Source of the DNA: a virus
Length of the DNA stretch: 64,000 nucleotides
Virus record (IMG/VR): IMGVR_UViG_3300049491_000465
Span: 13,885 to 77,884 of that record
Direction: 5' to 3' (one strand)
Shown here: in pieces, positions 844 through 25,100 of the stretch
Layout: each line of letters begins with the position of its first letter
Position numbering within the stretch: the first letter of the stretch is position 1
Notes under the pieces: model-generated
What the model was told of the DNA's origin: nothing
The model's input: only the letters and a program-made list of their open reading frames with translations
Databases searched by the model: none
Made by a program: the position numbers and the translations under genes

Positions 844-1995
844 ATGAGTGATAATATGAACAACGGTCAAGGCCAAAATACAGATCCATCATTAGAGGTT
901 AACTTTGATGCTTTATCTGCTCCGGAAGGACAGTATAATCCATTTATTCATGGCGATGGTAATGGAAACGTAAATAATTCTGGTTCTAACGAACCGGGTG
1001 AACCGAGCATTCCAGGAAGTACTGAAGATCTTATTAATGGACTTCCTAACTTAGATAAGGAATTCAATCAACAGCAATTAGATCAACAGAATCAACAGCA
1101 AAGCCAAGATCAGCAACAGAATCAGAATCAAGATCCTAATGCTGGGCAAAACAATAATCAACAGCAAACTTCCGGTGATTACTGGATGAAGCCGTTTGAG
1201 CAAATAAAAGCAGCTAATCCTGAATGGGAAATCCCCCAAGGATTGAACGAAGAGAACTACCTTCAAACTCTTCAGGAAATATTTACGCCAGAACTTCATC
1301 CTGAAGTCGTGAAAATACAAGAGGCAATTGATAAAGGAGTTACTTTTGATCAAGTTGTTGAGGCGTATAAAGGAGGTAACGATATGTCGAAAATGACAGA
1401 TCGTGAAATGATGGATCAGCATTTCAAAAATTCTTACAAGGATTGGGACGATGCTAAAATCAAAGAAGTTCTTGATAAGATGGAGAATTCCGGTTATCTT
1501 GAAATTGAAGCCGGTAGGCTTAGAAAAGAGATCAACGAGCAACAGTCAAGTGCTCTTGACAATATGACGAAAACTTTTGAGCAACAACGCTCTCAAGAAG
1601 TCGCAAGGATCAATGATGAGCGTTCAAAGCAAATCAATGAATCACTCAATATAATCAACAAAGCAAATGATGTTTATGGTCTACCACTAAGTCAATCTGA
1701 AAAGGTAGAGTTCAGTGAATATTTCGCTAAGTTGGTTACTCCAGACGAAACTGGTATGGCCCCTATGTTCCGGGAATTGCAAAGCAATGAAACATTGGTG
1801 AAAGTAGCAGCTATGTTATGGAAAGGTGATTCAAAAATCCGTGCAGCTTTAACGAGTGCTAAAGAATCTGGTAAAGCATCAGTTCTTGATAAGCTTGATA
1901 AAACTCCGAATAATGTTCAGAGAGGTGGCGGTAATCAAGATCCAACCCAAGTAGATTTCGATGCATTGTCAGCTCCAGAGCGATTGATGCATTGA
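844..1995 (+). CDS. Putative capsid scaffolding protein (acidic, Q/N-rich N-terminal half, coiled coil)
   Basis: Between portal and MCP; low-complexity acidic N-terminus, helical C-terminus; FDALSAPE motif at both termini. Confidence 0.6.
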   Translation: MSDNMNNGQGQNTDPSLEVNFDALSAPEGQYNPFIHGDGNGNVNNSGSNEPGEPSIPGSTEDLINGLPNLDKEFNQQQLDQQNQQQSQDQQQNQNQDPNAGQNNNQQQTSGDYWMKPFEQIKAANPEWEIPQGLNEENYLQTLQEIFTPELHPEVVKIQEAIDKGVTFDQVVEAYKGGNDMSKMTDREMMDQHFKNSYKDWDDAKIKEVLDKMENSGYLEIEAGRLRKEINEQQSSALDNMTKTFEQQRSQEVARINDERSKQINESLNIINKANDVYGLPLSQSEKVEFSEYFAKLVTPDETGMAPMFRELQSNETLVKVAAMLWKGDSKIRAALTSAKESGKASVLDKLDKTPNNVQRGGGNQDPTQVDFDALSAPERLMH

Positions 1996-2033: not shown

Positions 2034-3488
2034 ATGAAAATTATCGGTACTGGCACATACGATGCCAACAGGACCACAATGACAAACTCCCTTGCGGCAG
2101 CTCTTTTGACTCGCCCGGAGATTTCGTCAAACGTGGTGAATTTATTTGAGGACAATTTTACAGCGTTCTCATCTTACCTCGCACGAAGAGGTTTTATGAA
2201 AAAAGGTCTGACTCCCGGATTAGAAACATCTGATTTCAAAGTGATTGGAAACCGAAAGTTCATGTGGGCTTTGAAAGGTTATCCTTTCCGAAAAGGAAGA
2301 ATCGTTGTTGATGCTACCGATGCAAATGGTGGTGCAACAGCACAACCGGGTGTTAATCAATCAGTGTTCATCATTACTTTGGATACTAATTTCTTTTCAC
2401 CAAATGATACTTTGGAATTGGGAGATCGTAGAACGATCGTTCAAGTCATGGATGAGTATCCGGTGGAAGTGGGTTCAGGAAACTGGAAATACAAAGTGAA
2501 GTTAGTTACCAATGTTCAAGGTGCATGGGTTGATCCTACTCTTGTCTCTGCTGACAGAGAAGTTGGTTTCAGTTACACTGCGTTCCCGGAACTTTCTGAA
2601 ACTGGTTACGAGAAAAACACATTCCCTGAGTGGCATACAAACTACATGACTATCCAACGTATGCAATTCTCAATTTCTGGTTCTGCACAGAACACAGTAT
2701 TGTGGGTTGAGCACAATGGTCAAAAATTGTGGTTTAAGCAACAAGAGATGGACATGCTTCGTCGTTGGGCTTATGCTCGTGAGAATCAATTGATTTTCGG
2801 TAAAGCATCTATTGATGCAAACGAAAATGTATTGCTTCGTGACTTGAAAGGTCGTGAGATCATCCAGGGAGATGGTATCGTTGCACAAGGAGATTCTTCA
2901 TTGAAATTCCAGTACAACAACTTGAATGTAAAAACTCTTGAGAACATCATGCAGAACTTACAATTGTTGTCTAACAACGATGGTATGACTGAGGTGTTTG
3001 TAATGGGTGGTCAAGCATTCGTTTGGAACTTCCAACGATTGATGCGTGATGTATTCAAGTACAATCCTACTCCATTATTTGTTTCTGAAGGAGACAAAGA
3101 AAAAGGAGTTAAAGTGGCTTTCAACAGCTACGAGATGGGTGGTGTTAAGTTGGTTGTTGCTTGGAATAAAGCAATGGACGCAGCTTGGAGACCGCAAGAG
3201 AAAGATATCTATGGTGTAAACCTTGAGTCTTATCGTGGATTCTTCGTGAGTCTTGGTAACACTATCGGAGGTGATGCAAACGTAGATCTTGTTGCTCTTG
3301 GTAACGGATCTGATGATCGTCGATATGTGAAAAAGATTATCGACGGTATGTCCACTCCACAAGGATCTGGTCGTCGTGAATTCGCTTCAAATTCAGTTGA
3401 TGGATACCAAGTACAGATCTTGTCTGAGACAGGTCTTTGCTTGAAAAATCCATTCGGATTTGCTGAGATCTACAAACCAAGAGGATAA
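2034..3488 (+). CDS. Major capsid protein (crAss-like)
   Basis: 484 aa, synteny after portal and scaffold, strongly biased codon usage, crAss-MCP-like segments (FMWALKG, ELSETG, NSVDGYQVQILSETGLCLKNP). Confidence 0.85.
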   Translation: MKIIGTGTYDANRTTMTNSLAAALLTRPEISSNVVNLFEDNFTAFSSYLARRGFMKKGLTPGLETSDFKVIGNRKFMWALKGYPFRKGRIVVDATDANGGATAQPGVNQSVFIITLDTNFFSPNDTLELGDRRTIVQVMDEYPVEVGSGNWKYKVKLVTNVQGAWVDPTLVSADREVGFSYTAFPELSETGYEKNTFPEWHTNYMTIQRMQFSISGSAQNTVLWVEHNGQKLWFKQQEMDMLRRWAYARENQLIFGKASIDANENVLLRDLKGREIIQGDGIVAQGDSSLKFQYNNLNVKTLENIMQNLQLLSNNDGMTEVFVMGGQAFVWNFQRLMRDVFKYNPTPLFVSEGDKEKGVKVAFNSYEMGGVKLVVAWNKAMDAAWRPQEKDIYGVNLESYRGFFVSLGNTIGGDANVDLVALGNGSDDRRYVKKIIDGMSTPQGSGRREFASNSVDGYQVQILSETGLCLKNPFGFAEIYKPRG

Positions 3489-6281: not shown

Positions 6282-6947
6282 ATGTCAAAGACTCTTGCTG
6301 AAGTAGGATATAGCATCCGAAATCAAATTAAAGGTTACTTCTCAACTGATGATGAGCGAATTGATATTCAACTTATCTATGACAAGTGTTGGGATGTAAG
6401 ATCTATTTTACTGAAAGAAGAGTATCGTCAATTCAAGAAGATAAATGATCAAGATTTTACTACTGAGTGCTGCCTTGAGGTTCAATGTAGCAGTATCGTA
6501 TGCAACGGAATTGATTCCGGAGTAAAAGAATTTTTCGTTCAGATACCAAAAATTGAAGCTTCCATTGGTTACGATGGAATTAAATATTTTGGTACAGTTG
6601 ATAAGAAGACTCCATTCAGAAGAGTTAATTATCAAGGACACATGTTTTCCGGCCATGAGAAATATACCGGTAGAGCACCAATGTTCACTCTGGTTGATGA
6701 TAAAGCAATATTGTCAAACATGCCAACGTCAGGTATGAAGTTCGTCTGCCTCATTGCTATTTTCGAAGATCCAAGAGGTATATGTAATGAAAATGATCCA
6801 TTCCCATTAGCAAGACATTTAGTTCACAAACTTGAATTGATTGTTATTCAACAATTGATGAGCACAATTCAAATAGGACCAGATGAAACTAATAATGGAA
6901 GAGACAATTCTCCGGATCAATTACAGAAACAAAGCCGTGTAGAGTAA
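6282..6947 (+). CDS. Putative tail ring protein
   Basis: crAss ring-like pattern (STDDERID...RSILLK, AIFEDP, DETNNGRD); synteny. Confidence 0.55.
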   Translation: MSKTLAEVGYSIRNQIKGYFSTDDERIDIQLIYDKCWDVRSILLKEEYRQFKKINDQDFTTECCLEVQCSSIVCNGIDSGVKEFFVQIPKIEASIGYDGIKYFGTVDKKTPFRRVNYQGHMFSGHEKYTGRAPMFTLVDDKAILSNMPTSGMKFVCLIAIFEDPRGICNENDPFPLARHLVHKLELIVIQQLMSTIQIGPDETNNGRDNSPDQLQKQSRVE

Positions 6948-7805: not shown

Positions 7806-8558
7806 ATGAGCGACAATTTCAATAATCCGGCATATACTGTCAACATTAGTGTTGATCCGAGCTTGAGAGCCCTTAATGATAACTCTGTCAATCTCACATG
7901 TAACGATGGTAGTTCAATAAATTTCCAGGCAAGTTCAGTTGAAGAAGTTGGTTCTGGAAAATATTCTTCGGTAAAAAATGTTGCCGCAAGAATAGCAAGA
8001 AATGTTAAAGGAAAAGAGTTTGACATTTACGATATCGCAGAATGGTGTGGTGAATGTGAGACTGATGAAATTGGCATGTATGAAGGTTTTGCTAAGTATC
8101 GCAATGTACCAATACAGGTCAAAAATAATAAAGGGTATGTCCCTTGCAATGTGTACCGGTTATTAAGTGTTCACAGAAATAAATGTTCTGTTGCTAAATA
8201 CGACTGGGATGGTGCATTTCTTCGATTCAACTTTGATGATCCAGGAACGATGAATAGTGAATACACTGTTTACATCGATTACCTTGGTGTGAAAGTTGAC
8301 AGTGAAGGATTGCCAATGATCTTAGATGGACATCAAGAAGCTTGCTTCTGGTACTGCATGACTAAGATCTATTTCGAAGATTATATGAATGGCCTTACTC
8401 CGGAAAATAGATTCATGTTTCTCCAGGATCGTCTTGGTCATTATGTAAGTAAAGCAAAAACTTCATTCAGATATGTCACAAGAGATGATATGAATGAGAT
8501 CCAGAGAATCATGCATAATCTGGTTCCTAAAGTGAAAATGTCAAGAAATGTAGGGTAA
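7806..8558 (+). CDS. Tail tubular/ring protein (P22 gp4-like position)
   Basis: KYSSVKNV..., DIAEW, VYIDYLG...DSEGLPMI...EACFWYC pattern; synteny after the IHF-like gene. Confidence 0.6.
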   Translation: MSDNFNNPAYTVNISVDPSLRALNDNSVNLTCNDGSSINFQASSVEEVGSGKYSSVKNVAARIARNVKGKEFDIYDIAEWCGECETDEIGMYEGFAKYRNVPIQVKNNKGYVPCNVYRLLSVHRNKCSVAKYDWDGAFLRFNFDDPGTMNSEYTVYIDYLGVKVDSEGLPMILDGHQEACFWYCMTKIYFEDYMNGLTPENRFMFLQDRLGHYVSKAKTSFRYVTRDDMNEIQRIMHNLVPKVKMSRNVG

Positions 8559-10684
8559 TGAAACTGAAGACTAAAATAGGGAAATCTGAAATCCATGGTA
8601 AAGGTCTTATGGCTGGAAAGGATTTGAAGCCAGGTGAAAACCTTGGAGTTTCTCATGTTGACAATTGGCCCACAAAAGATATTGGTGAAAACTATAATCA
8701 TTCAGATAATCCAAATGCCATGAGTAAAAATGTAGGTAATAAAAAGATTGTCGTTCCGATAAAGAAGTTAAAGAAAGGCGATGAGATTACTGTTGATTAT
8801 AGAACTAATCCTGAACTGGAACAGCCTGAAGGTTTTAAATCTGGAGGTAGTCTTTATAAGATGATGGATTATCAAAATGGAGGACCCGAAAATTCATCTT
8901 CAACACCAGTCAGACCTGTATCAAACAAACCAAAACCATTAGAGATAGCTGATCCTAAAGAATACAAGTATAGAAAATCTATGTATGATGATAGTTTAAG
9001 TCTTTTTAATGCATATCAATTTCAGAAAAAGAATATTAATCCCACACCAATATTAAGGGAATATGTAGAGGATTACAATACCACTACTAAAAAATATTTT
9101 AATGGAAAAAGACCCACCCTAACAGTAGATCAAATAAAAAAAACACGAGATACTAACTTCAACAAAAACTTACCTAAGTTTAGTCACAATGAATACTTAA
9201 AAACTAAAAAAGATCCATCAGGAGGATTTGATCCAATGGATAAAGCAAGTGGAGATTATAAGATTTATGACCATAATAAAAAGTTAAATTTTAATTATCC
9301 AGTATCGTTAGGAAAACACAGTTCTCCTGATCTTTGGCATTCAAAAATAAACCCATCAGGTTCTTATTTTGATGGTGTTGCTTATTCTCCAAAGTATAAA
9401 AAACCAATTCAACCTGTTCAGTTTGTTGAAAAACAAACGGAAACATCCGAGAACACAATTAAAGAAGGGTTAAATACAGAAGTAAAAACAATATCTCCTG
9501 AAGAACAAGCACCAGTATCAAATACGACACCAGAATCTAAAACAACAACTAAATATCCAATTCAACAAGCTTACAGAGCTCAAACAATAATGGAGCCTGA
9601 TACTGCAATGCCTGGTAAATACAAAGTAAAAGAAATAAGACAAGTGCCTTATCAAGCTACATCAGGAGATAGTGAATCAGACTGGAAAGATGTTCATGCA
9701 CCAATTATGCTGTGGGTTAATGATAAAGGAGAAGAAGTTGAATATGATCCAAGAAAAGGACAAGATTCAGTTAATCATACACAAAACAACGCATCTCAAA
9801 CAGAGGTTCAGAACGAAAAAGCTAAAGCAGAAAGAAGATCTCAATTCTTTGATCCAAGTGATCCCAACAGACCTTCGTTCAATAAGGGCGGAAGTATCTA
9901 TGGTATGATGGAGTATCCCGATGGTGGACCAGGTTCAATGACTCCTCCGGCAATGAGTTTAGGAATGACTGATTCAGCCGCAGGGAAAACCATGTTGAAT
10001 CCATTTTACAGAGAACAGCTTAAAATTTATAACGACTGGCCCACATCGTCAAATTTTGGATCAACCACAGCTAAGGTTTTAGAAGGAAGAGAACTTGATA
10101 ATTGGTATTCAGAAGCGGTAAAAAATCAACCTGATTTAATTAAAGAAGGAGGGTTGTATGCCGGTAATTTTAAGCCATCAAGAGTTTATTTAGATGAAAC
10201 AGGAATTTCAGCTTACCCAATGTTTAATAAACCTTCAAGATATATACCGGCACCAGAACCAACCCCTCCTCCAGCTCCAGTACCAGTTAAAAGACCTGGT
10301 ATGTATTTGAGTGCGAATACCGCACAGCCAATGCCTGATAGAGGATCTCCTGGACAAGTTGATAGACAGTACAGTCAATACTTAGAAGAGTTCGCAAATT
10401 CTCCAGAACAAGTTGCAGCAAGACAATCTACTCAAGCTAACATGAGTAGTAACACAGAGTTGCTTCAAACCATGACTGAAGAACAGAAGGCTGAAGCCAG
10501 AAAAAAGAAAATGACCCCTACTGAATTTCTTTCTACACAAAATAAAAGTGATTCTGTACAGTCGTCAGGATCGATTGCCAATCCAGTTTCAACAGAAAAT
10601 ACATCTCCGTTCTTTGATCCAAACGATCCTAAAAGACCGTCTTTTAATAAGGGTGGTAGTCTGTATAGAATGATGAAATATTAA
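8558..10684 (+). CDS. SET-domain (lysine methyltransferase-like) modular protein, putative virion cargo
   Basis: N-terminal ~85 aa carry SET motifs: SEIHGKGLMAGKDLKPGE, YNHSDNPN, KKGDEITVDY; remainder split by three GGS(L/I)YxMMxY repeats. Confidence 0.75.
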   Translation: MKLKTKIGKSEIHGKGLMAGKDLKPGENLGVSHVDNWPTKDIGENYNHSDNPNAMSKNVGNKKIVVPIKKLKKGDEITVDYRTNPELEQPEGFKSGGSLYKMMDYQNGGPENSSSTPVRPVSNKPKPLEIADPKEYKYRKSMYDDSLSLFNAYQFQKKNINPTPILREYVEDYNTTTKKYFNGKRPTLTVDQIKKTRDTNFNKNLPKFSHNEYLKTKKDPSGGFDPMDKASGDYKIYDHNKKLNFNYPVSLGKHSSPDLWHSKINPSGSYFDGVAYSPKYKKPIQPVQFVEKQTETSENTIKEGLNTEVKTISPEEQAPVSNTTPESKTTTKYPIQQAYRAQTIMEPDTAMPGKYKVKEIRQVPYQATSGDSESDWKDVHAPIMLWVNDKGEEVEYDPRKGQDSVNHTQNNASQTEVQNEKAKAERRSQFFDPSDPNRPSFNKGGSIYGMMEYPDGGPGSMTPPAMSLGMTDSAAGKTMLNPFYREQLKIYNDWPTSSNFGSTTAKVLEGRELDNWYSEAVKNQPDLIKEGGLYAGNFKPSRVYLDETGISAYPMFNKPSRYIPAPEPTPPPAPVPVKRPGMYLSANTAQPMPDRGSPGQVDRQYSQYLEEFANSPEQVAARQSTQANMSSNTELLQTMTEEQKAEARKKKMTPTEFLSTQNKSDSVQSSGSIANPVSTENTSPFFDPNDPKRPSFNKGGSLYRMMKY
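9845..10684 (+). repeat. Internal direct repeat FFDPxDPxRPSFNKGGSxYxMMxY (9845-9916 and 10610-10681; partial copy 8831-8887)
   Basis: Visible in both protein and DNA (ttctttgatcca...gacc.tc.tt.aataaggg.gg.agt). Confidence 0.9.
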
Positions 10685-10696
10685 AATTTACACACG

Positions 10697-13600
10697 ATGC
10701 CAGTACAAAATAATGAATTTTTCAAAGGAGACAACAGGGATCTTGATGTTCTGAGAATGCCGAATGATACAGCTCGGAGACTTCAGAACATGCGTATTAT
10801 TGATGTCGATGGAAAAGGTCTTGTTTGTACTAATATTGGTGGTAATGAATTCAGATTCTCTTTGACTCATGGATTCATTCCAATTGGAAGATGTGAATAC
10901 AATGGTATAGGATATATCGCTTCAGTTAATCCTGATACAGGGGAAGGTGAAATAGGATGTTATCCTGCACCAACAGCATTAGCGGATCAGAATCCTTCTG
11001 CCGTAGGATTTGGTGCAAAGGTATATGCTCCGTTATTCAATTTTACCGGTGGAAATATTTCGAGAGATCCAAATTCAATTGCTCAAGCATTTAGAACTCC
11101 ATTGTTCAATTTTGATTGTCACAATCAGATCGACATGTTTGCCAGAGAAGATTATGATGGATCTGTAAATCTTTATCTTGCGGAAAAAGGAAATCCATTA
11201 AGGGTTATTAACTCTGGATTTGATAAATCAGGTGCTCTTACATCGATCGGAAGAAGATATTGGAATGGATCGTTCCCAAATGCAATCAGCTTGATTAATG
11301 AGTCTGAAAATCATATTGACGTTCAATTCACTGGTCTTGGAAAAGCAGGATCATTAAGAGGTGGTAACTGGATATTCTTTGTTCGTTATGCTACTGAGAA
11401 TTTTGACAAGACATCTTTCTTTACAGAAACGAATGCAATAATGATTACATCCGGTGAATATGCAAACGAAGGCATAAGACATCATGGTGTTAAGGGTGGT
11501 GAAGTAACAGACAAAAGTGTTAATCTTTCGTTTTCCGATATCGATCCAACATACTCTTATCTTGAGATAGGATACATGTATTCATTCAATGAATCACAAG
11601 AGTTTGGAATCATTGATAAATTGTATGCACTCGATCCAAATTCCTCAACAATAAACATTGAGATAACCGGATACGAAGGTAGATTTGAAACAGGATTCGA
11701 AGAGGTTATCAGATCGAAAGTAAGATTTGACGGAGCCACAACTCATACCCAATTAGAGAACAGATACTTTGCTGCTGATCTTTTTGACAATACTGATTTT
11801 GATGATGATGCATCTCAAGATATTCTTGATTTTGCTCAGAAAATAAAACCAAAGTATGATGATTCAAAACTTATAGCACACATTTCTGGATCCGGATCTC
11901 CAATTGGTATCTACAACAATGTTGATAACACATACAATTTCACTGGTCATTTTAGAGGAGAGTCGTATGCTTACGGTATAGTTTGTGTTTTGAACAATGG
12001 AAGAGAAACTCAAGCTTATCCAATAGAAGGTGTTGATGATTACAATGGAGTTGGGGGTACTACAAATCAAAATGGTATTTATAGATTTCCGAATATAAAC
12101 CTATCTCAAACTGTTGCCGGTAACAATATTCGTGTTATGGGTATCAAGTTCGATATATCGTCTGCAATCGCTTCAATCCCTCAATACATCCTTGATAACG
12201 TATCAGGGTTTTACTTTGTGAGATCTAAAAGAAATGAAACATTACTGTACCAAGGACTTACACTTCCTTGTTACAATGCTGCTGAAGGGAAGGACATTAG
12301 AGGATTATGGTTTGCTTTTCCAGATTTCCCACAGATTCTTAAAAGAAACGAGAATCTGGTTCCTATGTTTGAGTTGAATGGAGATGATGAGAATGGTGCT
12401 GAGTTTCCGTACATACACAGATTTGATCCAGACGATCTTCTTGACAGGGAGTTTACCTTTGTGTTCTGGCATAACAATCTGAATAAAAGAATTGCCAATA
12501 AATTTGGATTCTATTCTCCAGATCACTTCTTTAACAAAAGTGTTGGTGTTAATAAAGCTTTTGTTTCAACATTCGCTGATGTTACATTCAATATCTCTCA
12601 AGAAGATAAGTTGAGTAAGCCGGATTATTTTTACGGTGATAATACATACACCTATATTCTTGGACCAAAATCCATGTATGACATTGCTAATATCAAAGAG
12701 TGGGAACCGGCTAATAATAATGGATATGCTTCCTATTTCAATGAAGGTGCAAAAAGTGATTTCAATGGTAACTTCTATTTCTTTGCGAAAAACTTACTTG
12801 GAACAAAGTATATTGAGGTAAGAAATCATGAGATGGCTTGGAATTCATACATTGGAATCAATTCATCTAATGCTTTAAGATATAGATTGTCAAACATTTA
12901 CAGAACAAATGTTGATCCTTCTATTTTTGATATAAATGATCTTTATGACATCAAGGCAACTGAGTATTACAAGATTAGTAAGTTCTACAAAATATCAGAT
13001 GTCGTAGCTGATCCATCGATTGTAAACGGTAACATCTTTTATCGTGGAGATTGTTTCCTTCAGAGAACTTGGTTGAAGCAGTTATTCAATCCTAAGTACG
13101 GTGTAGGTGTGAAAGATGATGGAGGAGGCGTGTTCGGATGGACAGCAGCACTTCCGGGACCAATAAAGGAACGGTTATTCACATTTGGTACATCATTCAG
13201 TATTATCACTGAAAACAAGATTAATACCGAGATGCGTTTGGATAATGCAATTAATAAATATTACCCCGGATCTGTTGCTCTCATATACGATCATGCTGCA
13301 AAAAACATTGAGAAGGAATCTCAGGATTTGAATCGTGGATACAATGAATTGTTGTCTGTAAAATCTTATCGTGGAATTGATAGAGAGATACCGTTTATTC
13401 CAGAAAAGAAACACGCTGCAATCATGGTGAGTAACAAGCATGTTCTCGGATCTTTCCTTGATGGATACCGTGTTATTGATCAGAATGCGATTCGTGATTA
13501 CGATTACAGAATGGGTAAAATTGTTCGTATAGGAGTATTGAATAACATACTTTTGAGCGTTCAAGAATTTGGTGTGAATAGACATTTTGTAAATGAAAAA

Positions 13601-14611
13601 GCTGTACTTAATGGGGGTCAATCCTCTGGTGAATTACTTCTGGGAACTGGTGACGTTCTTGATCCTAAACATTTGAATCTTTCTGATTTTGTCGGATCAC
13701 AACATGCTTGGTCGGTAGTATTTACTGATCGTGCTATGTATGGTGTGGATTACAATAAGAGAAAAGTCTGGAGAGCACTCCAGCAAGAAGGTGGACTTTC
13801 TGTTGAACCAACAAGTGATATATATGGATACCGAACAACTATACATCAGCTTTGTGAGAAGAATACTGGGGACTCTGATATTACTGAACTTCTTGATGAT
13901 AACCCTGTATGTAATGCAGGTATTGTGGCACATTATGACAGAAAACATAATGACATTATCTTCTCTTGGATATATGGAAATCCAACCACTCCAAATGATT
14001 GTGACATTAATAAAAACGGTTCTACAATTGTTTTCAATGAATGGATGAATGCATTCCATGGAGAGAGAACTGTTGCTTCACCAATGTCTCTTTCTGTGAA
14101 TGAGGATTTCTTTTATTTCAATCCAAACATATTCCCAAGTATGAATCCAATTCCTGTTCCAAATGGAGACGCTTGGATTCAGGATATTAAGATTTCAGGT
14201 GGAATTGAAAATGCTACATTGTTCTTTGGGATTGCAGATCCTCATATCTCTTTTGTTGAATTCATTGTTAAAGAACCTGCTGATATTGCAAAAGTGTTTG
14301 ATAATCTTCACATCAACTCTTCTCCGGAAGATTTGTATAAAGCTTTCTATGAAACTCAACATCAAACAGGAGAACATTTTCCATGGATCGTTGGAGATGA
14401 AATAAACTACTGGAGAGATCCTATATACCAAGAAAATCTCTGGAGACTTCCGATTATTAGAACTCAGCAAATACAGGAACCTGAAAACAATATCTATGAT
14501 GTAGATAGCAGATTCAGAGGGCGTTGGTTGAAAATAAGATTGGAATATAAGACAGGAAGCAATATCTTTATAAAATCAGTTTTGACTGCATTTAGAGAGT
14601 CTAAACACTAA
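10697..14611 (+). CDS. Tail stabilisation / muzzle protein (P22 gp10-like)
   Basis: 1304 aa; NEFFKGDNRDLD N-terminus, FRGESYAYGIV, RGDCFL, GSQHAWSV, RFRGRWLKIRL C-terminus as in crAss muzzle proteins. Confidence 0.8.
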   Translation: MPVQNNEFFKGDNRDLDVLRMPNDTARRLQNMRIIDVDGKGLVCTNIGGNEFRFSLTHGFIPIGRCEYNGIGYIASVNPDTGEGEIGCYPAPTALADQNPSAVGFGAKVYAPLFNFTGGNISRDPNSIAQAFRTPLFNFDCHNQIDMFAREDYDGSVNLYLAEKGNPLRVINSGFDKSGALTSIGRRYWNGSFPNAISLINESENHIDVQFTGLGKAGSLRGGNWIFFVRYATENFDKTSFFTETNAIMITSGEYANEGIRHHGVKGGEVTDKSVNLSFSDIDPTYSYLEIGYMYSFNESQEFGIIDKLYALDPNSSTINIEITGYEGRFETGFEEVIRSKVRFDGATTHTQLENRYFAADLFDNTDFDDDASQDILDFAQKIKPKYDDSKLIAHISGSGSPIGIYNNVDNTYNFTGHFRGESYAYGIVCVLNNGRETQAYPIEGVDDYNGVGGTTNQNGIYRFPNINLSQTVAGNNIRVMGIKFDISSAIASIPQYILDNVSGFYFVRSKRNETLLYQGLTLPCYNAAEGKDIRGLWFAFPDFPQILKRNENLVPMFELNGDDENGAEFPYIHRFDPDDLLDREFTFVFWHNNLNKRIANKFGFYSPDHFFNKSVGVNKAFVSTFADVTFNISQEDKLSKPDYFYGDNTYTYILGPKSMYDIANIKEWEPANNNGYASYFNEGAKSDFNGNFYFFAKNLLGTKYIEVRNHEMAWNSYIGINSSNALRYRLSNIYRTNVDPSIFDINDLYDIKATEYYKISKFYKISDVVADPSIVNGNIFYRGDCFLQRTWLKQLFNPKYGVGVKDDGGGVFGWTAALPGPIKERLFTFGTSFSIITENKINTEMRLDNAINKYYPGSVALIYDHAAKNIEKESQDLNRGYNELLSVKSYRGIDREIPFIPEKKHAAIMVSNKHVLGSFLDGYRVIDQNAIRDYDYRMGKIVRIGVLNNILLSVQEFGVNRHFVNEKAVLNGGQSSGELLLGTGDVLDPKHLNLSDFVGSQHAWSVVFTDRAMYGVDYNKRKVWRALQQEGGLSVEPTSDIYGYRTTIHQLCEKNTGDSDITELLDDNPVCNAGIVAHYDRKHNDIIFSWIYGNPTTPNDCDINKNGSTIVFNEWMNAFHGERTVASPMSLSVNEDFFYFNPNIFPSMNPIPVPNGDAWIQDIKISGGIENATLFFGIADPHISFVEFIVKEPADIAKVFDNLHINSSPEDLYKAFYETQHQTGEHFPWIVGDEINYWRDPIYQENLWRLPIIRTQQIQEPENNIYDVDSRFRGRWLKIRLEYKTGSNIFIKSVLTAFRESKH

Positions 14612-14623
14612 AAAACGTAAGTT

Positions 14624-15625
14624 ATGCCATGGCCAGCAATTGCCGCAATAGCGGGTAAAGTATTAGGAGGATTAGCTGCATCTGGAGCAGGTGCAGGAGC
14701 GGCCGGTGCTGCCGGAGCAGGAGGAGCTGGTGCAAGTGGTATTGGTGGAATGCTTGGCGGAGGCGGAGGCGGTATGATGGGCGGAAAAGGTATCATGGGA
14801 ATGATGGGTGGCCAAGGTGGAGGCGGAGGTCAAGCCGGTGGAATGATGCAAAATATAGCTGGTAAAATAGGATCGACTGGTGCTGCTGTACAAGGTGGAC
14901 TTGTTAATATGCTTGAAGCACAAGATGGTTTATTGATTGATCCTAAATTGTTTGATTATTTATCAAAGATGCAAGGAACCGAAGGACAAGCTCCAGCAAT
15001 GGGAAATCCTCCAGTAGCAGACAATACTGCTATGGCATCTGGATTAGAAGCTCAAACACCTCAAGTTCAAGGACAAGATGTTCCTGATGCAGCAGGTTCA
15101 GCACCTCCAGTAAATCCAATGACTCAAGTTCCAGATCCAAATCAACAAGTGGCGGATCCGGCAAGGCAACCTGCTCAACAGCAAACTATCACACCTGGAA
15201 ATCCAAGTGATTTAAAAACTAATTTACCTGGTGCAAATCAGGGCCCTCCAGGAAAAGGAGCAGCCGGACAGATTAGCTCTTTAATGGGAATGATGGGTAA
15301 AGGAAATTATACAACCGATCAAAGAGGTGTTACACAAGTTTCTGAAACAAGTGATGTTTTAGGTAATTCTGTTAAGAAATTCGACCCTAAAAAGCCTGGC
15401 TCAGCCATTACTGCTACTGCTGCTTTTGTTACCGGGATAGCTAAACAGCAATCAGAACAGAGAAGAGCTCGTCGTGAAGAAGCACAATTAGCTTCTGATT
15501 TCTCAAGAGCACAACAAGCCTCAAGTGTTTATGCAGATCCAAACAGTGTTTACTATTCTGCAAAAGATGGTGCACCTGTTAGTTTATCAAAGATGATGGT
15601 TGGAGGTAGAACTAAAAACTGTTAA
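14624..15625 (+). CDS. Putative ejected cargo/pilot protein (Gly/Ala/Met-rich N-terminus)
   Basis: Hydrophobic Gly-rich N-terminus, Pro/Gln-rich middle; first gene after the muzzle. Confidence 0.55.
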   Translation: MPWPAIAAIAGKVLGGLAASGAGAGAAGAAGAGGAGASGIGGMLGGGGGGMMGGKGIMGMMGGQGGGGGQAGGMMQNIAGKIGSTGAAVQGGLVNMLEAQDGLLIDPKLFDYLSKMQGTEGQAPAMGNPPVADNTAMASGLEAQTPQVQGQDVPDAAGSAPPVNPMTQVPDPNQQVADPARQPAQQQTITPGNPSDLKTNLPGANQGPPGKGAAGQISSLMGMMGKGNYTTDQRGVTQVSETSDVLGNSVKKFDPKKPGSAITATAAFVTGIAKQQSEQRRARREEAQLASDFSRAQQASSVYADPNSVYYSAKDGAPVSLSKMMVGGRTKNC

Positions 15626-15628
15626 GAG

Positions 15629-17104
15629 ATGAGTATCTTGAAAATGTCATACGGAACAATACCTGGTAATGGTCATCATAAGTCTGATGATAAGGTTATG
15701 AATGCAGGTCCCGGACATGTTGTTCCAGGGGAAAATCTTCATGTGGCTAAAAGACTTGTTTCTGATATGGGATATGATCCTGATGCAAGTGTTGATCTTA
15801 ATCAAGGTAGAGGGAATGGTCAGAACATAAAGATCAGTTCCGGTGAATTCTTCATGAATGAACAACAAGTTGAGGAGTTGAGAAATAAAGGGGTTAATCC
15901 TGAATCTCTGTCTCCGAACTCAAAGTATAATCAAAGCGGAAACAATATGAACGGTGGTCCAAACGCTTATGCTTCAGGGGGTATGACTCTCTATGAGCTA
16001 ATGATGAATAACAATAATCAGTATCCATCATATCAAGATGCTGGGTCTACCGATCCATTAAAAGATCCTTGGGAACAAAGGCCGGCTAATGAAATTCTAA
16101 TGCCTCCAGGAGCTACTGCTGATCAAGGTTCAGAACTTCCATCTGCACCAAGAGATATGAAAGAAAACTTTCCTATCAGTACAGAGATGCAGGTTCTTGA
16201 TCCTAACTCATGGAGTCCAAACATTCCAGATTATGATCCTTTAAGAGAACCATGGGAACAATTACCTGCTGGAGAAATATTATCACCTGGAAATCCAGAT
16301 CAAGGATCTGATTTACCAATAACTCCAGGTAATTTAAGAGAACCATACAATCTTGGACCAAAACCTTTTGAAGCAGAAAAACCTGCTGGAAAAAGTCCTG
16401 AAGATATTTACTTACAAGATTTGCTTCATAAGAACAAGAAGTCAGCAGACAAGGAGGTTCTTGCAAATATGGCTATGTTTGGCTGGAATGCTTCAAGAGG
16501 TAGAATGCCTGGTGAACAGCCAAAAATGGTTCATATGAGAGAGGCTGTTCGTGATTACCAAGGTATGAAGAATCTTGCTGCTGGAGATCTTGAGAGAGCT
16601 GAAAGACGAAACGCTTACACATTGAAACAACTTGGTGCTCCAGAAAAGATTGTTGGTCTTCATGCGAATACCATCCAAGGTGCAAACAAGATCAATGAGT
16701 CTATCTGGGATATGCAAGGACAGGATTCTATGCAGAATGCCGGTGTAGCAAATCAGGTTCGTATGGATTACGAGAATGCTATGCGTCAATACCGAGCTAA
16801 TGAATCTGCTGCAACACAGAATTTCAGAGATATGAAAGGTAAAAACATGGCTGAAAATGTTGCTCAAACATTCGATGTTCGTGATAATGAACTCTCAAAT
16901 GAAACTACTCTTCGTGGATACAAGAAGAATCAAGAGATGGATGAGCTGGATCGTCAGTACAACACATTGAGCAAAAATGCATTTCAAGGTAAATATTTTA
17001 GTAGACAAGATTGGTACAAAATGACTCCTGATCAGAGATCTAAATATATAAAGACATCTGATGAGCATACAGCAAAAATGAAAGGCTCAACTAATCAGGG
17101 CTAA
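15629..17104 (+). CDS. Putative ejected cargo protein
   Basis: N-terminal PGNGxxKSDD...ISSGEFFM domain, internal ~40-aa duplication, helical C-terminal half; between muzzle and RNAP. Confidence 0.55.
   Translation: MSILKMSYGTIPGNGHHKSDDKVMNAGPGHVVPGENLHVAKRLVSDMGYDPDASVDLNQGRGNGQNIKISSGEFFMNEQQVEELRNKGVNPESLSPNSKYNQSGNNMNGGPNAYASGGMTLYELMMNNNNQYPSYQDAGSTDPLKDPWEQRPANEILMPPGATADQGSELPSAPRDMKENFPISTEMQVLDPNSWSPNIPDYDPLREPWEQLPAGEILSPGNPDQGSDLPITPGNLREPYNLGPKPFEAEKPAGKSPEDIYLQDLLHKNKKSADKEVLANMAMFGWNASRGRMPGEQPKMVHMREAVRDYQGMKNLAAGDLERAERRNAYTLKQLGAPEKIVGLHANTIQGANKINESIWDMQGQDSMQNAGVANQVRMDYENAMRQYRANESAATQNFRDMKGKNMAENVAQTFDVRDNELSNETTLRGYKKNQEMDELDRQYNTLSKNAFQGKYFSRQDWYKMTPDQRSKYIKTSDEHTAKMKGSTNQG
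16052..16348 (+). repeat. Internal duplication DPL(K/R)(D/E)PWEQxPAxEIL...DQGS(E/D)LP
   Basis: Copies begin at 16052 and 16235. Confidence 0.85.
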
Positions 17105-19136: not shown

Positions 19137-22100
19137 ATGGCAGAAGATCAATTATCGAATGAAGCTCAAGACTTAGAGCTTCCTCAAGATCCTATTCAGG
19201 AAACATCTGTTCCGGAATCATCTATTCCAGAGGCAGATCCTCCAGTTAAAAAATCATATTCAGTTCCAAAAGAGCATGTTGACTTTTATGGATTAACATC
19301 CATATATGGAAATTCTGATGCTGATGTTTTTGAAATGCAAAAAACAAAACCTCAGAAGATATTATCCATGATGCCGAAGGAAGAGGCTTTCAAACATTAT
19401 TCTGAAGAGGCTAAACGAATGGGTCTTGATTGGACTCCAGAGAAATTCGAACAAGATTATTCTTTTCGTGAAAAACAATATGCTAATTATAAAAAAGGCG
19501 TGTTTGATCATGGTACTGGATTTGACCATACATTCAATAGAAGTTGGTCGAATCTTTTCGCAGACATGATATCTCCATACGAATTCAATCCATCAAGTGC
19601 ATGGGTAAAAGTCAATCCTCTTGATACTCAATTTATACATGAAGACGGAGAGCTTAAACGTGTAAAAACAAAAGATGAATCCATGTATGATCTTGGGTTT
19701 GTTTTGACTGATATTCAAGGTGATAAAGTAAAAAACGTATATGGTGATTACGTTAAAAACGAAAGGAAATATAAAGAAATAGAGATCGGTGGAAGAAAAA
19801 TGAGAGTTCTCGATCTTGAAGCTCATAAAGATGATTTCTTTAATACTTCAAGAAACAACCCTGGTCCTGAAGGGAATACTGTTCTTGTTGCTTCTGAACT
19901 TCCAGACGGAACTCCAGCTTGGAAAGAAGAGACCATCGGTAAAATATCCGGTAAAGTTCATAGTGATGAAGTTGCCAGTGTTTACGGGCCAAGATCAATG
20001 AGACAATCATGGCATGAAAATCTATGGATGGCTTCACTTCCAAATGCAGCAGCTTCTATTCAAACATCTATTGTCGGTTTTGCTGATTATATTAAAGATG
20101 CTTTTGGATATGGAAATGTTTATCTAAAAAATATGACTGGCGGTATTGGATCGACAGAATCCATTAGTGCGTTATATCAGGCTGGAACACCAGACTGGTT
20201 AGATAAAGCAGATAAAGAGTATAGGGATCATGCTGCTTGGATGAAGCCTAAAGCACCAGAGAATGTTCGTGGTGCTGGTGCTTTTGATAGTGCTCAATCT
20301 TTCGCTTGGAGCGGAGGGGCTGTTGCTGGTGAATTAATTAAAATGATAGCAGCAAGAAACTTCTCTTCATGGGCTGGAAAAACAGTTGGCATGACTCAGA
20401 TGGGTGCTGCTAAACTTGGAGGATACATGGGTTCTGGAACCATGGCTATTTCTGCTGCTGATCAATTTAAGCAATCAATGATTGATAATGGTATATCTGA
20501 GGATAATCAATTCCTTCTGTATGGTCCAGCATTAGTTTCTTCATTTTTTGTTGAACGACTTGGCGGTAACATCCTTGATGATGGACTCAAATCATTCTAT
20601 GCTAAACAGAATGTTAAAAAATATGTTGATGAAGGGATTCAGGAACAAGTTAAATTGTTCGGATTAAAATCTGCTTCTGAAATGTCAAAAGAACAAGTTA
20701 GATCAACTGGTAAAGTTGTATGGAATAAGATTTTCGATGCAAGTAAGTCGATGGGTGCTTTAGGTGTTAAGGCCGCTGGTGTTGCTGAGAAATATGCCCC
20801 TATATCTATTAAAGCTGCATGGGAGGAAGGAATGGAAGAAGCTGTTGAAGGAAGGATTTATACTGCTTTAGAAACTATTCACGATATGCATCAGGCTCAT
20901 GATGCAAGAATGGGTAAAGATCTTGATCGATACACATATTCTTCATCTCCAGATGAAAAGAATTTTTATGAGGTAGACCGTCTTACTGGAATCAAAAGAA
21001 AGATTAGTTCTGAAACATACGAAAAGATGTCTTCAGCTCAAAAGATTAAGCCTGGAAACGGAATGTTCGGAGAGTATAATCCTGAGCTTGGTCTTATTTC
21101 TAACTGGACAAATAGAGCTACCGAAGGTCTTGTTGAAGACTTTGTTCTTGGTGCTTTTGCTGGTGGATTAATGACTGGTGCTGGAAAGCTTACTAATGGA
21201 AAAGATGCTCAAAAAGAAAAAACTCTTCAAGATTATGTTGTCCGTGGAAATGGCGATATAATGAGAAGTAAGTTTGCAGAGATGCATGAGAAGGGTCTTT
21301 TTGGACCAACAGACATAAACACTCAAGATAAAGTTCATAACCCTCAAGATGAGAATTCTTTAAGTCTTAATGACATGGGTTATCAAACTGCTTTGAAAGA
21401 ACTTGAAGAAGCTGAATTAACTTTTAAGTTAACTGGACTTGAAGGAGATGCTCTTAAAGAAATGATGGAGTCTGAATACGGACATTCTCTTCTGAAGGAG
21501 GCTTATAACAATGTGGGCAAACAAAGAGATCTTCAGTCTGAAATAGATGATATTAATAAAGAGATGTCTGAAACAACAGACCCTCAATTAATCAAGAATC
21601 TTCAAGAAAAAATTACTGATAAAACAAGGTTAAAGGAAGACTTGAATATTCAGTTGGGAGAGATCAGATCTGGAGATCGTATGATTCAAAGTGTTTCTGA
21701 TTACGCTATAAAAGATTGGAGCTCACAAAACAATACTGGTATCATCGATCCTAATGGAAATAAAGTAACTCCTGGTATAGCAGAATTGAAAAACGTAAGT
21801 GATCGTTACGATTCTAAGAAAGCTGCTGAGATTGAAAAAATAAATGAAGCGAAATCAAAAAGAGTACAGCTTGAAAATGAGGTCGGTTCTTTTTCTAAAT
21901 CAAAAATAGATCCATTAAGTGCTGAATCAAATGTTTTTGAAAAGATCTCTGATATTCAGATAAAAGCTTCTGAAGTTGGTTTATCTGAATCCGGAACTAA
22001 ATCAATGATGGATAAACTTCAAGGTATTCGAAAAGATATTTTGAGAGGTATCGATCAATTTTTTACAGCGGAACAAATAACTGAAGCAGAAACGTCTCCT

Positions 22101-25100
22101 GATGAAGAAGCATTAATGACTATGGCTAAATCTGGAATAGCTGGTTCTGATGCTGAAAAGATTGCTAAAACTTATGATGATCTTGATAGATCAATTAAGT
22201 CATTCAATGTTGATAAGAAGCCGGAAATAAAAAAAGATGACTTTGTTCAATGGACTCAATCTGGTCAATCACAATTTGATCAACCCAGAAAAGTTACGAA
22301 GATTTCTGATGACGGTGAATTTGGATTTGTAGAAGGATCTGATACTGGAATTCCTATTTCTCAATTACATGATCCAAATTACACAGGGGGTCGTGTTCGT
22401 GGATCTATTCCTGAATCTTTTGATGAATCTACATTTAAAAGAAACTTCTACGACACTTATATTGATACTCAAGGAAATGAGGTTAGTATCAATCAAACAA
22501 TGTCAGATCTCGCAAGTAGAAAAATGAATAGTGAAGATGAGAAGACTATTGAACTTTTGAATCAAGCTATTTCAAATAATGATTACCTGGCAAATGTTAA
22601 TCACAATGTTTTAAAGGATCTTTCAAGCAGTAAAGATATTAATCTTGGTAAATACAAGCCTTCAGATGAGTCTATCTTAAATGATGATGAGTATAAAGCT
22701 GTAATAAATGATCTTGCAGATAAAAAGAATAGACTTAGAGATCTTTCTGAAGTTCAAAAAAAGGATGCTAATAACAAAAAGAATAGAGAGGGAAAGCTTC
22801 GTTATAACGATTACAAAATGCGTAATGACATTCTTGTTCTCGCATCTAATGTTGAGCATATTTCTCTTGATTCAAGAAACGAAATAGCAAGATTAAAAGC
22901 TCAGATATCAGAAGCTTTAGATTTGATTAAAGATAGTTATAGTAGTGAAAAGCAATACAAAAGAGAATATCTTGATCAAGTCGATCCGTTACTTGTAAAG
23001 GCTGAAACTATTCTTCATTATGAATTTAATGGAGATAATAGAATTGAAATAATTGAAGGTATAACTGCTCAGTTTAAGCAGTATAAAGGATATGGTCCTT
23101 ACAAGTCTCAAATCTATCACAACGCAAGTGAGTTTGTAATGCATGATTTTGAAAATGTTTTTGATTACAGTTCTTTTAGTGAACAGGTGGTTAACAACGG
23201 AAAATCTAAAGGGGCTGCTTTTATGGCTAACATTCAGTTTGCCAATACATATTTCACAAATCATCTTCAAACTATTGATCGATTGGATCCTAAAAGATTC
23301 TTTGATTTTTATGCGAATTCTGTTGCTGGATTAGATTTAGAATCAGGTCAAGTTCCTTCTTATGAACAGATTAAATCGATCTATCATACTACTGCATTCA
23401 TGTCAAATCAGAAGACTGATCTTCTTTGGAAGGTTCAGGATATTCTCACTGGTGCAAAGAATGAGAAGTCAAAGGAGATGCATTTCAATAGAGCATTATT
23501 TCTTCGTGGATTTGCTGGAACCGGAAAGACATCTTTAGTAATTAAATATGCTTCGAACATATTCTCTGATATGAACCAGAGAGATTTGGTTATAGATGTT
23601 GTTGCACCAAGTACAGAGCTTCAAAAATCATTGAGTTCAAATCTTGTTTCCTTTAGATCAAATTCTACTAATCCGAGTATGGATTATTATTCATTAGTTG
23701 ATCACATCTTAAACCCTAAGTCAACTATTGACAAAACAGATTTGATTATAATTGATGAGGCATCTAATTTAAGCAAGAGTCAATTGAAAGATCTTAGAAC
23801 TGCATTGAGCAAGTCTCGTGCAAGCAAAAGACTTTCTGTAATATTCCTTGGTGATCAGTCTCAAATGACATCTGTAAACAGTACAGTGAATGAGCTTGTT
23901 GCTGTTGAGAGAATCATGGAAAGAACAATGCCTACAACTGAGGTATTTCGTTCTGGTGCTGCTGACATTAGTAATCTTCAGAACTCATTCCGTAGCTCAA
24001 CATTCCAGAGAAAAGAAGCGATTCTTCCGAAAGGAACTTACGATAAGGAAAAGAACAATGGTCTTCATTATTTTGGAGGTACAAAAAAAGAAATGTACGA
24101 TCAATTCATTTCTGACTTAAACGACGGTGGTGACTTTAAAAAGAACAACACAGCATTGATTGTTTACAAGAAATCTGATCGTGAAGCTGCTATGAATTAT
24201 GTTCGTAAAGCTTTAAAGGATGGATCTTTTGATCTTGATTCAAAAATCAAAACAATTGAAGAGGGTGAATTCTCTGCTCAAGGTCTTGGGTATGGAAGAA
24301 TTTATGTAGCAATTGATCAAGCTGATGCTGCTCATTTGTATAACCCAGCAATGCTCACTGCTATTTCCAGAGCAAAAAGAATTGATGATGAACATAATGG
24401 TTTTGCTTCAGTTCTTTCCACAAGAGGATTTAGCCAGGAAGGATCTCCTCTTATTGTTGAAACAAAAACTGCTTCTGCTGAAGATATTGAACGTCACAAA
24501 TCTTGGGTATCATCTATCATAGGTATGCCTGTTGAGTCTTCTGACAAAGCACAAAAAGAAGCTTCATCTACAATTTCTGATGTTACCAGTGCAAACTTCA
24601 ATTCATTAAAATCGAACCTTAGTTCCATTTTAGGAAAAGGAAAAATTGAATTTACTGAAGGAGGCTTTATTGCTGATGGATTAAGATTCAGATACAAAAT
24701 AAAAAACAAACCGGTTCAATCTGTAACTCAAAAATTATCTTCAGCAACATCTCAATCTGAGACAGATAGAACATTGGATCCTCATGCTAAAAGAGGAAAT
24801 GCTGTTCATAGAATTGTTGAAGCACATTTGTTAAAGCAACAAAAGAAAGGTGGTAAACTGTTTACCAAACAAGATATTGATGCCATCAAAGGGTATGTGA
24901 AGAGTTATAACGATCAGGTAGCTAAATGGAATGAATTGGCTAAACCTGAATCAAGACTTCAAACTATCGATCTTAATAACGATGAGGCTACATTTGAGAC
25001 TAATAAGTTTATCCAGGATGTGATAAGTAATGTTGCAATTCCTATTGCAAACAAACTTAATCAAGGAGGTAAGTATTCTATTCCGGAATCTGTTATTGGT

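Follow-up and report, generated by a model that had tools for sequence, protein, structure and literature searches.

We have analyzed a window of 64,000 nucleotides (positions 13885-77884 of the 77,884-base virus record IMGVR_UViG_3300049491_000465; coordinates below are those of the window unless another sequence is named), which represents the virion module of an uncultured, metagenomic crAss-like phage, and found that three neighboring proteins encoded around the muzzle gene share what is, by its sequence, a conserved short linear motif. The proteins are P0001 (8558-10684, plus strand; 708 amino acids [aa], modular), whose gene lies between the ring 1 and muzzle genes, and P0002 (14624-15625, plus strand; 333 aa, rich in Gly and Met and with a hydrophobic N terminus) and P0003 (15629-17104, plus strand; 491 aa), which are encoded directly downstream of the muzzle gene (10697-14611, Pfam PF25731). 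As in Bacteroides phage crAss001 the muzzle gene gp44 is directly followed by gp45 (cargo protein C1) and gp46 (cargo protein C2), and then by genes for RNA polymerase (RNAP)-associated proteins (Bayfield et al. 2023, PMC10172136), P0002 and P0003 occupy the C1 and C2 positions. All three proteins are probably packed into the particle and injected. Tentatively, we favor the reading of the motif as an uncut docking handle, that is, a Gly-hinged mini-helix that would dock cargo modules inside the particle.

The clearest copies are found in P0001, which is made of a SET domain (aa 1-87), a module 2 (aa ~118-410), and a module 3 (aa ~458-690). The N-terminal domain matches the Pfam SET family (PF00856) and was modeled by AlphaFold2 (AF2) with a predicted local distance difference test score (pLDDT) of ~90 over aa 1-87. 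The motif, with the consensus F-x-K-GG-S-[LI]-Y-x-MM-x-Y, occurs here three times versus about 0.01 expected, and the strict pattern GG[ST][LIVM]Y.MM.Y has three matches, all of them in P0001 (at aa 96, 444, and 699). Copy 1, FKSGGSLYKMMDYQNGG (8834-8884, plus strand, aa 93-109), directly follows the SET domain, in a segment with a pLDDT of <50 (88-122). Copy 2 lies between modules 2 and 3 and forms, with its long repeat, FFDPSDPNRPSFNKGGSIYGMMEYPDGG (9845-9928, plus strand, aa 430-457; core at 9878-9928, aa 441-457), with aa 436-457 falling within the pLDDT <50 segment 436-514. Copy 3, which with its long repeat reads FFDPNDPKRPSFNKGGSLYRMMKY (10610-10681, plus strand, aa 685-708; core at 10643-10681, aa 696-708), is the C terminus of the protein, and AF2 predicts a short helix at 702-707 (LYRMMK) within this disordered tail. 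The sequence-only reading had placed the motif at the module boundaries of P0001, and the homologues agree: in BLASTP comparisons with 22 of them, matches to the SET part stop at aa 93-110 and those to module 2 span aa 118-410, while module 3 has no match among these 22.

Copies 2 and 3 are contained in a longer repeat of 24 aa, FFDPxDPxRPSFNKGGS[IL]YxMMxY, in which 19 of the 24 residues are the same, 6 of these through synonymous codons (57 of 72 nucleotides identical). Given this synonymous divergence, the two copies do not appear to be a fresh duplication, and selection seems to act on the peptide. The closest homologue, P0005, shares 90% identity with P0001 as far as the final Gly of copy 1 (residue 109), after which the two are unrelated. 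In P0005, and also in P0009 (3116-4981 of L001, one of the nearest genomes), the SET domain and tag are followed by a Gly/aromatic-rich module that replaces modules 2 and 3 and reads ...NTFAQ[VA]SPLS[LI]N...LTYG..G..E.QPFRFPLRL... P0005 and P0009 differ from P0001 by a clean cassette swap at the tag. Pfam searches with the modular proteins of the relatives identified the SET domain only, and the search of the ESM Atlas with module 2 of P0001 gave no usable match (pLDDT of the Atlas model, 0.45).

P0003 consists of an N-domain (aa 21-101), the motif, a hypervariable disordered middle region, and long C-terminal helices. Its C2-type motif, YASGGMTLYELMMNNNNQYPSYQDAG (15968-16045, plus strand, aa 114-139; aa 116-139 read GGMTLYELMMNNNNQYPSYQDAG), is a conserved island with a pLDDT of <50, located inside a 150-residue low-confidence AF2 stretch in which a four-residue helix is predicted at 122-125. 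Conservation in homologues and enrichment had been proposed as checks on the motif in the sequence-only reading. P0003 has 11 orthologues (34 to 74% identity), and GG..[LM]Y.LMMNNNNQYP.YQ[DN][AG]G is almost invariant among them, with L124, N127, N128, N130, Q131, Y132, Y135, Q136, and G139 strictly so; conservation amounts to 0.80 over the motif versus 0.45 and 0.34 in its flanks. Some C2-like orthologues carry the P0001-type form, namely, SGGGIYGMMNK (P0035, L009) and IGLYGMMNGGG...AYQDGGG (L010). The N terminus of P0003, MSILKMSYG (15629-15655, plus strand), is a degenerate copy: at this place the orthologues read MGSLYRNMQSGGASYG or MGSLYGKMNQGGNSYG, and the peptide is a worn remnant of their N-terminal M-G-S-L-Y-x-x-M-x-x-GG, which reaches a profile match of 6.9 bits on the L010 N terminus. 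The hypervariable region of P0003 also contains an internal repeat at aa 142-235 (approximately 16052-16330), DPLKDPWEQRPANEILMPPG...GSELP / DPLREPWEQLPAGEILSPG...GSDLP; it is absent from the orthologues, which have unrelated inserts of very different lengths there.

P0002 ends in a weaker form, S-L-S-K-MM, within the C1-type variant YSAKDGAPVSLSKMMVGG (15554-15607, plus strand, aa 311-328) near its C terminus. Among seven aligned C1-position sequences (P0002 and six orthologues), SVY, YSAKDGA, and M324/M325 are invariant, with the consensus N-[LI]-[AST]-x-M-M. P0002 stops soon after this point, and its counterparts in L002, L008, and L011 continue with additional modules. A possible extra copy, SSLMGMMGKG (15275-15304, plus strand, aa 218-227), which matches S[LI]xxMM, is kept in L001 (SLMGMMGKG) and in a looser form in L008. 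The peptide QGGLVNMLEAQDG (14891-14929, plus strand, aa 90-102) is a generic Q-x-G-G-type junction rather than a clear Met-Met copy, with relatives reading QNGLVDMLNAADG, KYQDGG, or SYQMGG at the aligned place and a profile score in the noise. All the coordinates in the sequence-only reading translate as it had given them. Five of its seven instances are real, while QGGLVNMLEAQDG and MSILKMSYG are weak and score in the noise in this genome. Comparison of the orthologue alignments (A1 and A5) with Protein Data Bank sequences gave nothing meaningful.

The enrichment of the motif was assessed by shuffling residues within each protein of the 84-open reading frame (ORF) genome, and it is far above chance. 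GG-x0-2-[LIMV][YF]-x1-2-MM was observed 4 times (3 in P0001 and 1 in P0003) versus 0.01 expected, MM-x1-6-Y-x0-4-[DN][GA]G 4 times versus 0.03 expected, and S[LI]xxMM 5 times (3 in P0001 and 2 in P0002) versus 0.24 expected. When the three P0001 copies were combined into an ungapped profile, it recovered only P0001 from this proteome, with P0002 and P0003 in the noise, so the link between the proteins was tested through the relatives (L001 to L012, recovered with alignments as queries), with a gapped cross-family profile. Built solely from the C2-like motif cores of other phages, this profile ranked P0003 first and the P0001 copies second, third, and fifth in this genome. Because of the orthologue conservation, the cross-family profile, and the bridging forms found in the orthologues, the instances in P0001, in P0003, and at the C terminus of P0002 are, at the sequence level, real and related, and the idea of a peptide common to neighboring cargo-position proteins is borne out by both the shuffle tests and the profile. 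Equally, pattern and profile scans of the proteome confirmed the absence of the motif from the capsid, ring, muzzle, and replication proteins, and [FYW]xxGG elsewhere across the proteome is at background (16 observed versus 12 expected); strong matches were confined to P0001 and P0003, with weaker ones in P0002. The sole match to the C-terminal part of the pattern beyond the cargo-position genes, AYDMMAYRNDYEEDGG, is probably due to chance; it is contained in a 623-aa protein encoded outside the window (G000:C1:10256-12127) that has no Pfam match. At every strong copy scored (the three of P0001 and that of P0003), the AF2 pLDDT is <50. Considering this low pLDDT, the homology breakpoints at the motif, and the orthologue conservation, the motif can be described as a conserved stretch surrounded by disordered sequence, at module joints and chain ends.

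The motif belongs to a wider pattern. In the homologues of P0001, differing modules follow one another, joined by hydrophobic-x-x-GG (FKKGG, YQEGG, MQDGG, and others), and junction sites are likewise present in the cargo-position proteins of the window (FKSGG, YQNGG, FNKGG twice, YPDGG, and YASGG). The post-muzzle proteins of L003 and L004, two more distant crAss-like genomes, are full of hydrophobic-x-x-GG sites, and a shared tail, E-[LM]-[DT]-x-x-x-I-x-x-L-x-x-x-GY-x-VEE[LM], ends two consecutive proteins of L004 (8942-12826 and 12887-15040 of that genome) and one of L003 (12751-14952). The GY-x-VEE tail is also internal in the homologues P0006 to P0010, P0018, P0019, and P0024. As L003 and L004 have these tails and the tags are Met rich in all three protein families of the window's own group, the flavor of the tag is common to several proteins of one phage and differs between lineages. 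The motif is, then, the local Met-rich flavor of a hydrophobic-x-x-Gly-Gly junction tag at cargo ends and module joints. Like these tags generally, which are kept in relatives and at which modules are swapped, it sits at the ends and joints of the proteins; what distinguishes the window tag is that it continues with S-[LI]-Y-x-M-M, to which the C2-like proteins add NNNNQYPSYQDAG, while L003 and L004 use the GY-x-VEEL type. In the literature, we found no description of the motif or of the junction tag.

A related arrangement can be seen in crAss001, for which structural data exist. Cryo-electron microscopy resolved two pieces of gp45, residues 214 to 245, bound to rings R1/R2 in 12 copies, and residues 425 to 552, on the portal, and also a 14-residue helix of unassigned origin bound to the muzzle in 6 copies (PMC10172136). 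In gp45 (L014, MH675552, 11988-14516), A[YF]GG occurs four times (207-210, 330-333, 425-428, and 560-563), versus 0.10 expected and a maximum of 3 in 5,000 shuffles, and these sites flank both of the resolved, virion-bound pieces. Residues 330 to 341, AFGGSLFDSVVG, resemble GGSLYKMM and are a candidate, on sequence likeness, for the 14-residue muzzle helix. The tag-adjacent stretch at 331-344 reads GGSLFDSVVGNNFN. In hydrophobic-x-x-GG sites, gp47 has 5 versus 1.6 expected, an excess that is not decisive, and gp49 and gp50 are at background. The C1 and C2 genes share with P0002 and P0003 their position after the muzzle gene, and C1 has a Gly-rich hydrophobic N terminus like that of P0002; however, crAss001 has no gene between ring 1 and the muzzle and no Met-Met core, and no shared motif is described in the paper (PMC10172136).

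We favor the docking handle because some copies are terminal, the flavor is shared within a phage, the L-x-x-M-M face between Gly hinges is helix prone, and helices are found docked in the crAss001 particle. The core S-[LI]-Y-x-M-M is able to adopt one or two turns of an amphipathic helix with the Leu and the two Met residues on one face, and it is bracketed by Gly-Gly hinges in otherwise disordered linkers. Each handle would attach to one of a set of repeated sites in the particle interior, be it on the inner capsid or on the scaffold, portal, ring, or muzzle. This attachment would recruit the flanked modules (the SET methyltransferase, module 2, module 3, the C1-like core, and the C2-like N-domain) during assembly and keep them in order until their release at ejection. 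The mixture of internal and C-terminal copies, with N-terminal ones in orthologues, fits a handle better than a scissile site; a flavor that is shared within a phage and variable between lineages fits one common phage-encoded partner, and the C1 helical pieces on rings R1/R2 and the 14-residue helix on the muzzle of crAss001 support the handle as precedents. A further step, which we regard as unlikely, would be a modular addressing system across the Crassvirales, in which each cargo module carries a handle, the flavor of the handles coevolves with a receptor surface on the ring, muzzle, portal, or capsid of the particle, any enzyme can be plugged in, the order of the handles sets the order of ejection, and the 14-residue muzzle helix of crAss001 is such a handle.

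Two known systems come close to a docking handle. In phage T4, the internal proteins IPI to IPIII and Alt carry a short N-terminal capsid targeting sequence of about 10 residues, which is cut off by the prohead protease at [LI]-x-E and with which foreign proteins can be loaded. The window motif is likewise a short peptide shared by unrelated proteins, in T4 head-internal and injected and here in cargo positions, but the T4 signal is exclusively N terminal, whereas the copies in the window are internal and C terminal, with an N-terminal variant in C2-like orthologues only. The cargo-loading peptides of encapsulins, which have alternating hydrophobic residues, follow a Gly-rich linker, are often C terminal, and dock unrelated cargo, uncut, inside an HK97-fold shell, provide the other parallel; a C-terminal peptide after a flexible linker is what we see in copy 3 of P0001 and, nearly, in P0002, the other copies being internal. 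Encapsulin peptides differ in their GSLxIGSL-type consensus, in being present in one copy per cargo, and in belonging to a tailless shell.

Several observations weigh against the docking handle and its generality. The binding, its partner, the absence of cutting, and packaging itself are points that we infer, in the case of packaging of P0001 to P0003 from gene position alone. P0002 and P0003 have no detectable sequence homology to gp45 and gp46, respectively (BLASTP E value of >1, hhalign probability of 0.2%, and no Pfam family), and there is no obvious stoichiometric reason for three handles on one P0001 chain. The giant protein that would be copackaged contains a zincin-like HExxH, and speculation in print is in favor of cleavage for fused proteins of this kind (10.1101/2020.03.07.982082). 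The long C2 form has seven matches in 1.84 billion representative proteins, all of them C2 orthologues with the motif at the same position, so this form is no portable tag. As for the strong short form, it was seen only in P0001, its closest relative, and C2-like proteins, and it is absent from the variable proteins of L001 and L002, the nearest fetched genomes, which have just loose forms such as NIARMMQDGG and GGKVYMEDGG. Of the plug-in tag proposed in the sequence-only reading, what stands is that different modules sit on the tag in different phages; the confinement of the long and strong short forms to these few families speaks against a universal tag.

The first alternative, which we consider possible although on the unlikely side, is that the motifs are protease recognition sites, the proteins being polyproteins cut at the tags during maturation or after injection, for example, by a zincin-like domain, with SET and other modules freed as effectors. 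T4 internal proteins and MARTX toxins are precedents for delivered modules that are cut apart, Gly-Gly is a common P2-P1 pair of viral and bacteriocin proteases, the motif falls exactly at module borders, and in C2-like orthologues the copy at the N terminus looks like a leader that could be removed. The potential protease would lie in the 6,414-aa ORF (19137-38381, plus strand), an RNAP fusion located 3' of P0003 after a gene for a 648-aa protein: the only HExxH of the genome, HEMIH (34398-34412, plus strand), is found at its aa 5088 and is a candidate zincin protease site, although Pfam detected no peptidase family. Drobysheva et al. reported a zincin-like domain for the orthologues of phi14:2 gp65 and suggested that fused RNAP proteins are perhaps cleaved polyproteins, with this domain as the candidate processor (10.1101/2020.03.07.982082). 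Their phages belong to the same group and the window has a comparable fusion with one HExxH, but no cleavage site was defined there and profile and pattern scans found no strong motif copy in the 6,414-aa ORF. Against cutting, the copy in the last 13 residues of P0001 would have nothing to free. In the crAss001 particle, the model of the C1 domain (425 to 552) starts at A425 and runs through A-F-G-G-W (PMC10172136), so the A-F-G-G site at 425-428 appears uncut after Gly-Gly, and the bands seen for virions at 150, 270, and >300 kDa are consistent with gp49, gp47, and gp50 in uncut form. Last, neither Pfam nor PHROGs revealed a prohead protease family among the proteins scanned, which were part of the ORFs.

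Regarding the rest of this ORF, its residues 1451 to 1634 form a superfamily 1 (SF1)-type helicase P-loop domain (Pfam AAA_30 and AAA_19), and the phage of L002 has a 6,832-aa open frame in its place. A look-alike of the motif at aa 4790, FNFTKGGLYEAMD, was rejected, as it is not conserved: the L002 phage reads FNFKTNTLYQAMD there, inside a conserved domain. LKEMMESEYG (21453-21482, plus strand, aa 773-782) is a possible related element in a helical context that is not Gly hinged. The pattern [LI]x[EK]MMxSxxGxxLLxEA[YF] is kept in five orthologues of the ORF, and its relation to the tag is uncertain.

Rather unlikely, in our view, is a passive seam: the motif, a hinge of flexible Gly with a few sticky residues, would cap the modules and serve as a conserved recombination stretch for cassette swapping, with no partner and no cut, and its conservation would be that of tolerated linkers passed on with the modules. 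The homology breakpoints do coincide with the motif, P0005 changes to an unrelated module immediately behind copy 1, x-x-GG joins modules in many combinations among relatives, and all copies are in predicted disorder. A hinge, however, needs neither the near-invariant L, Y, MM, NNNNQYP, and YQDAG of orthologues that are 34 to 74% identical nor the invariant MM of the C1-like family, and the terminal copies join nothing. Besides, with only ~79% identity in DNA and synonymous changes, the copies are a poor substrate for homologous exchange. A role in the host after ejection seems improbable: a host chaperone would grip the extruded modules by the motif and refold them, or the motif would be an amphipathic membrane or envelope element that helps build the ejection conduit. 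For crAss001, it has been proposed that the cargo leaves the particle partly unfolded and regains its fold in the host, and that C1 and C2 form a trans-envelope channel (PMC10172136), and such a role would agree with a hydrophobic, Met-rich core and with the hydrophobic, Gly-rich N terminus of P0002, but a flavor that varies by lineage and is uniform within a phage points to a phage-encoded partner. Finally, chance or composition, that is, an internal repeat of one protein plus look-alikes in Gly/Met-rich neighbors, is a very improbable source of the motif as a whole: it could draw on the failure of the ungapped P0001 profile, on the Met-Met pairs to be expected in a protein as Gly/Met rich as P0002, and on the two weak instances, but it is largely refuted for the P0001 and P0003 copies by the shuffle tests, the cross-family profile, the invariance in orthologues, and the bridging forms GGGIYGMM (P0035 and L009) and GLYGMMNGGG (L010) in C2-like proteins, and may account for the instances at 14891-14929 and 15629-15655.

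No viruses of the human gut are more abundant than crAss-like phages, whose relatives are also common in other environments. They select, package, and inject protein amounting to several megadaltons, and a conserved peptide at the joints provides a concrete sequence for mutation, reporter fusion, inspection of cryo-electron microscopy maps, and proteomics searches. If it is a loading handle, it would explain how these phages obtain new effector domains (SET enzymes, for example) and would offer a route to load foreign proteins; if it is a cutting site, it would define the long-suspected polyprotein processing of crassvirus virion proteins.

The remaining virion genes identified by Pfam in the window are those for the crassvirus major capsid protein (2034-3488), ring protein 2 (6282-6947), and ring protein 1 (7806-8558, PF24228). 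Single-protein queries with P0001 and P0004 retrieved no close relatives from the phage GenBank collection or IMG/VR. Outside the window, the record opens (G000:C1:1-60) with an extended stretch of C residues, ACCCCCCCCCCCCACCCC..., which probably arose as an artifact of assembly or library at the contig end. Directly 5' of the capsid gene, a putative scaffold (844-1995, plus strand; 383 aa, Gln/Asn rich) contains FDALSAPE twice, close to its two ends (aa 21-28 and 371-378).

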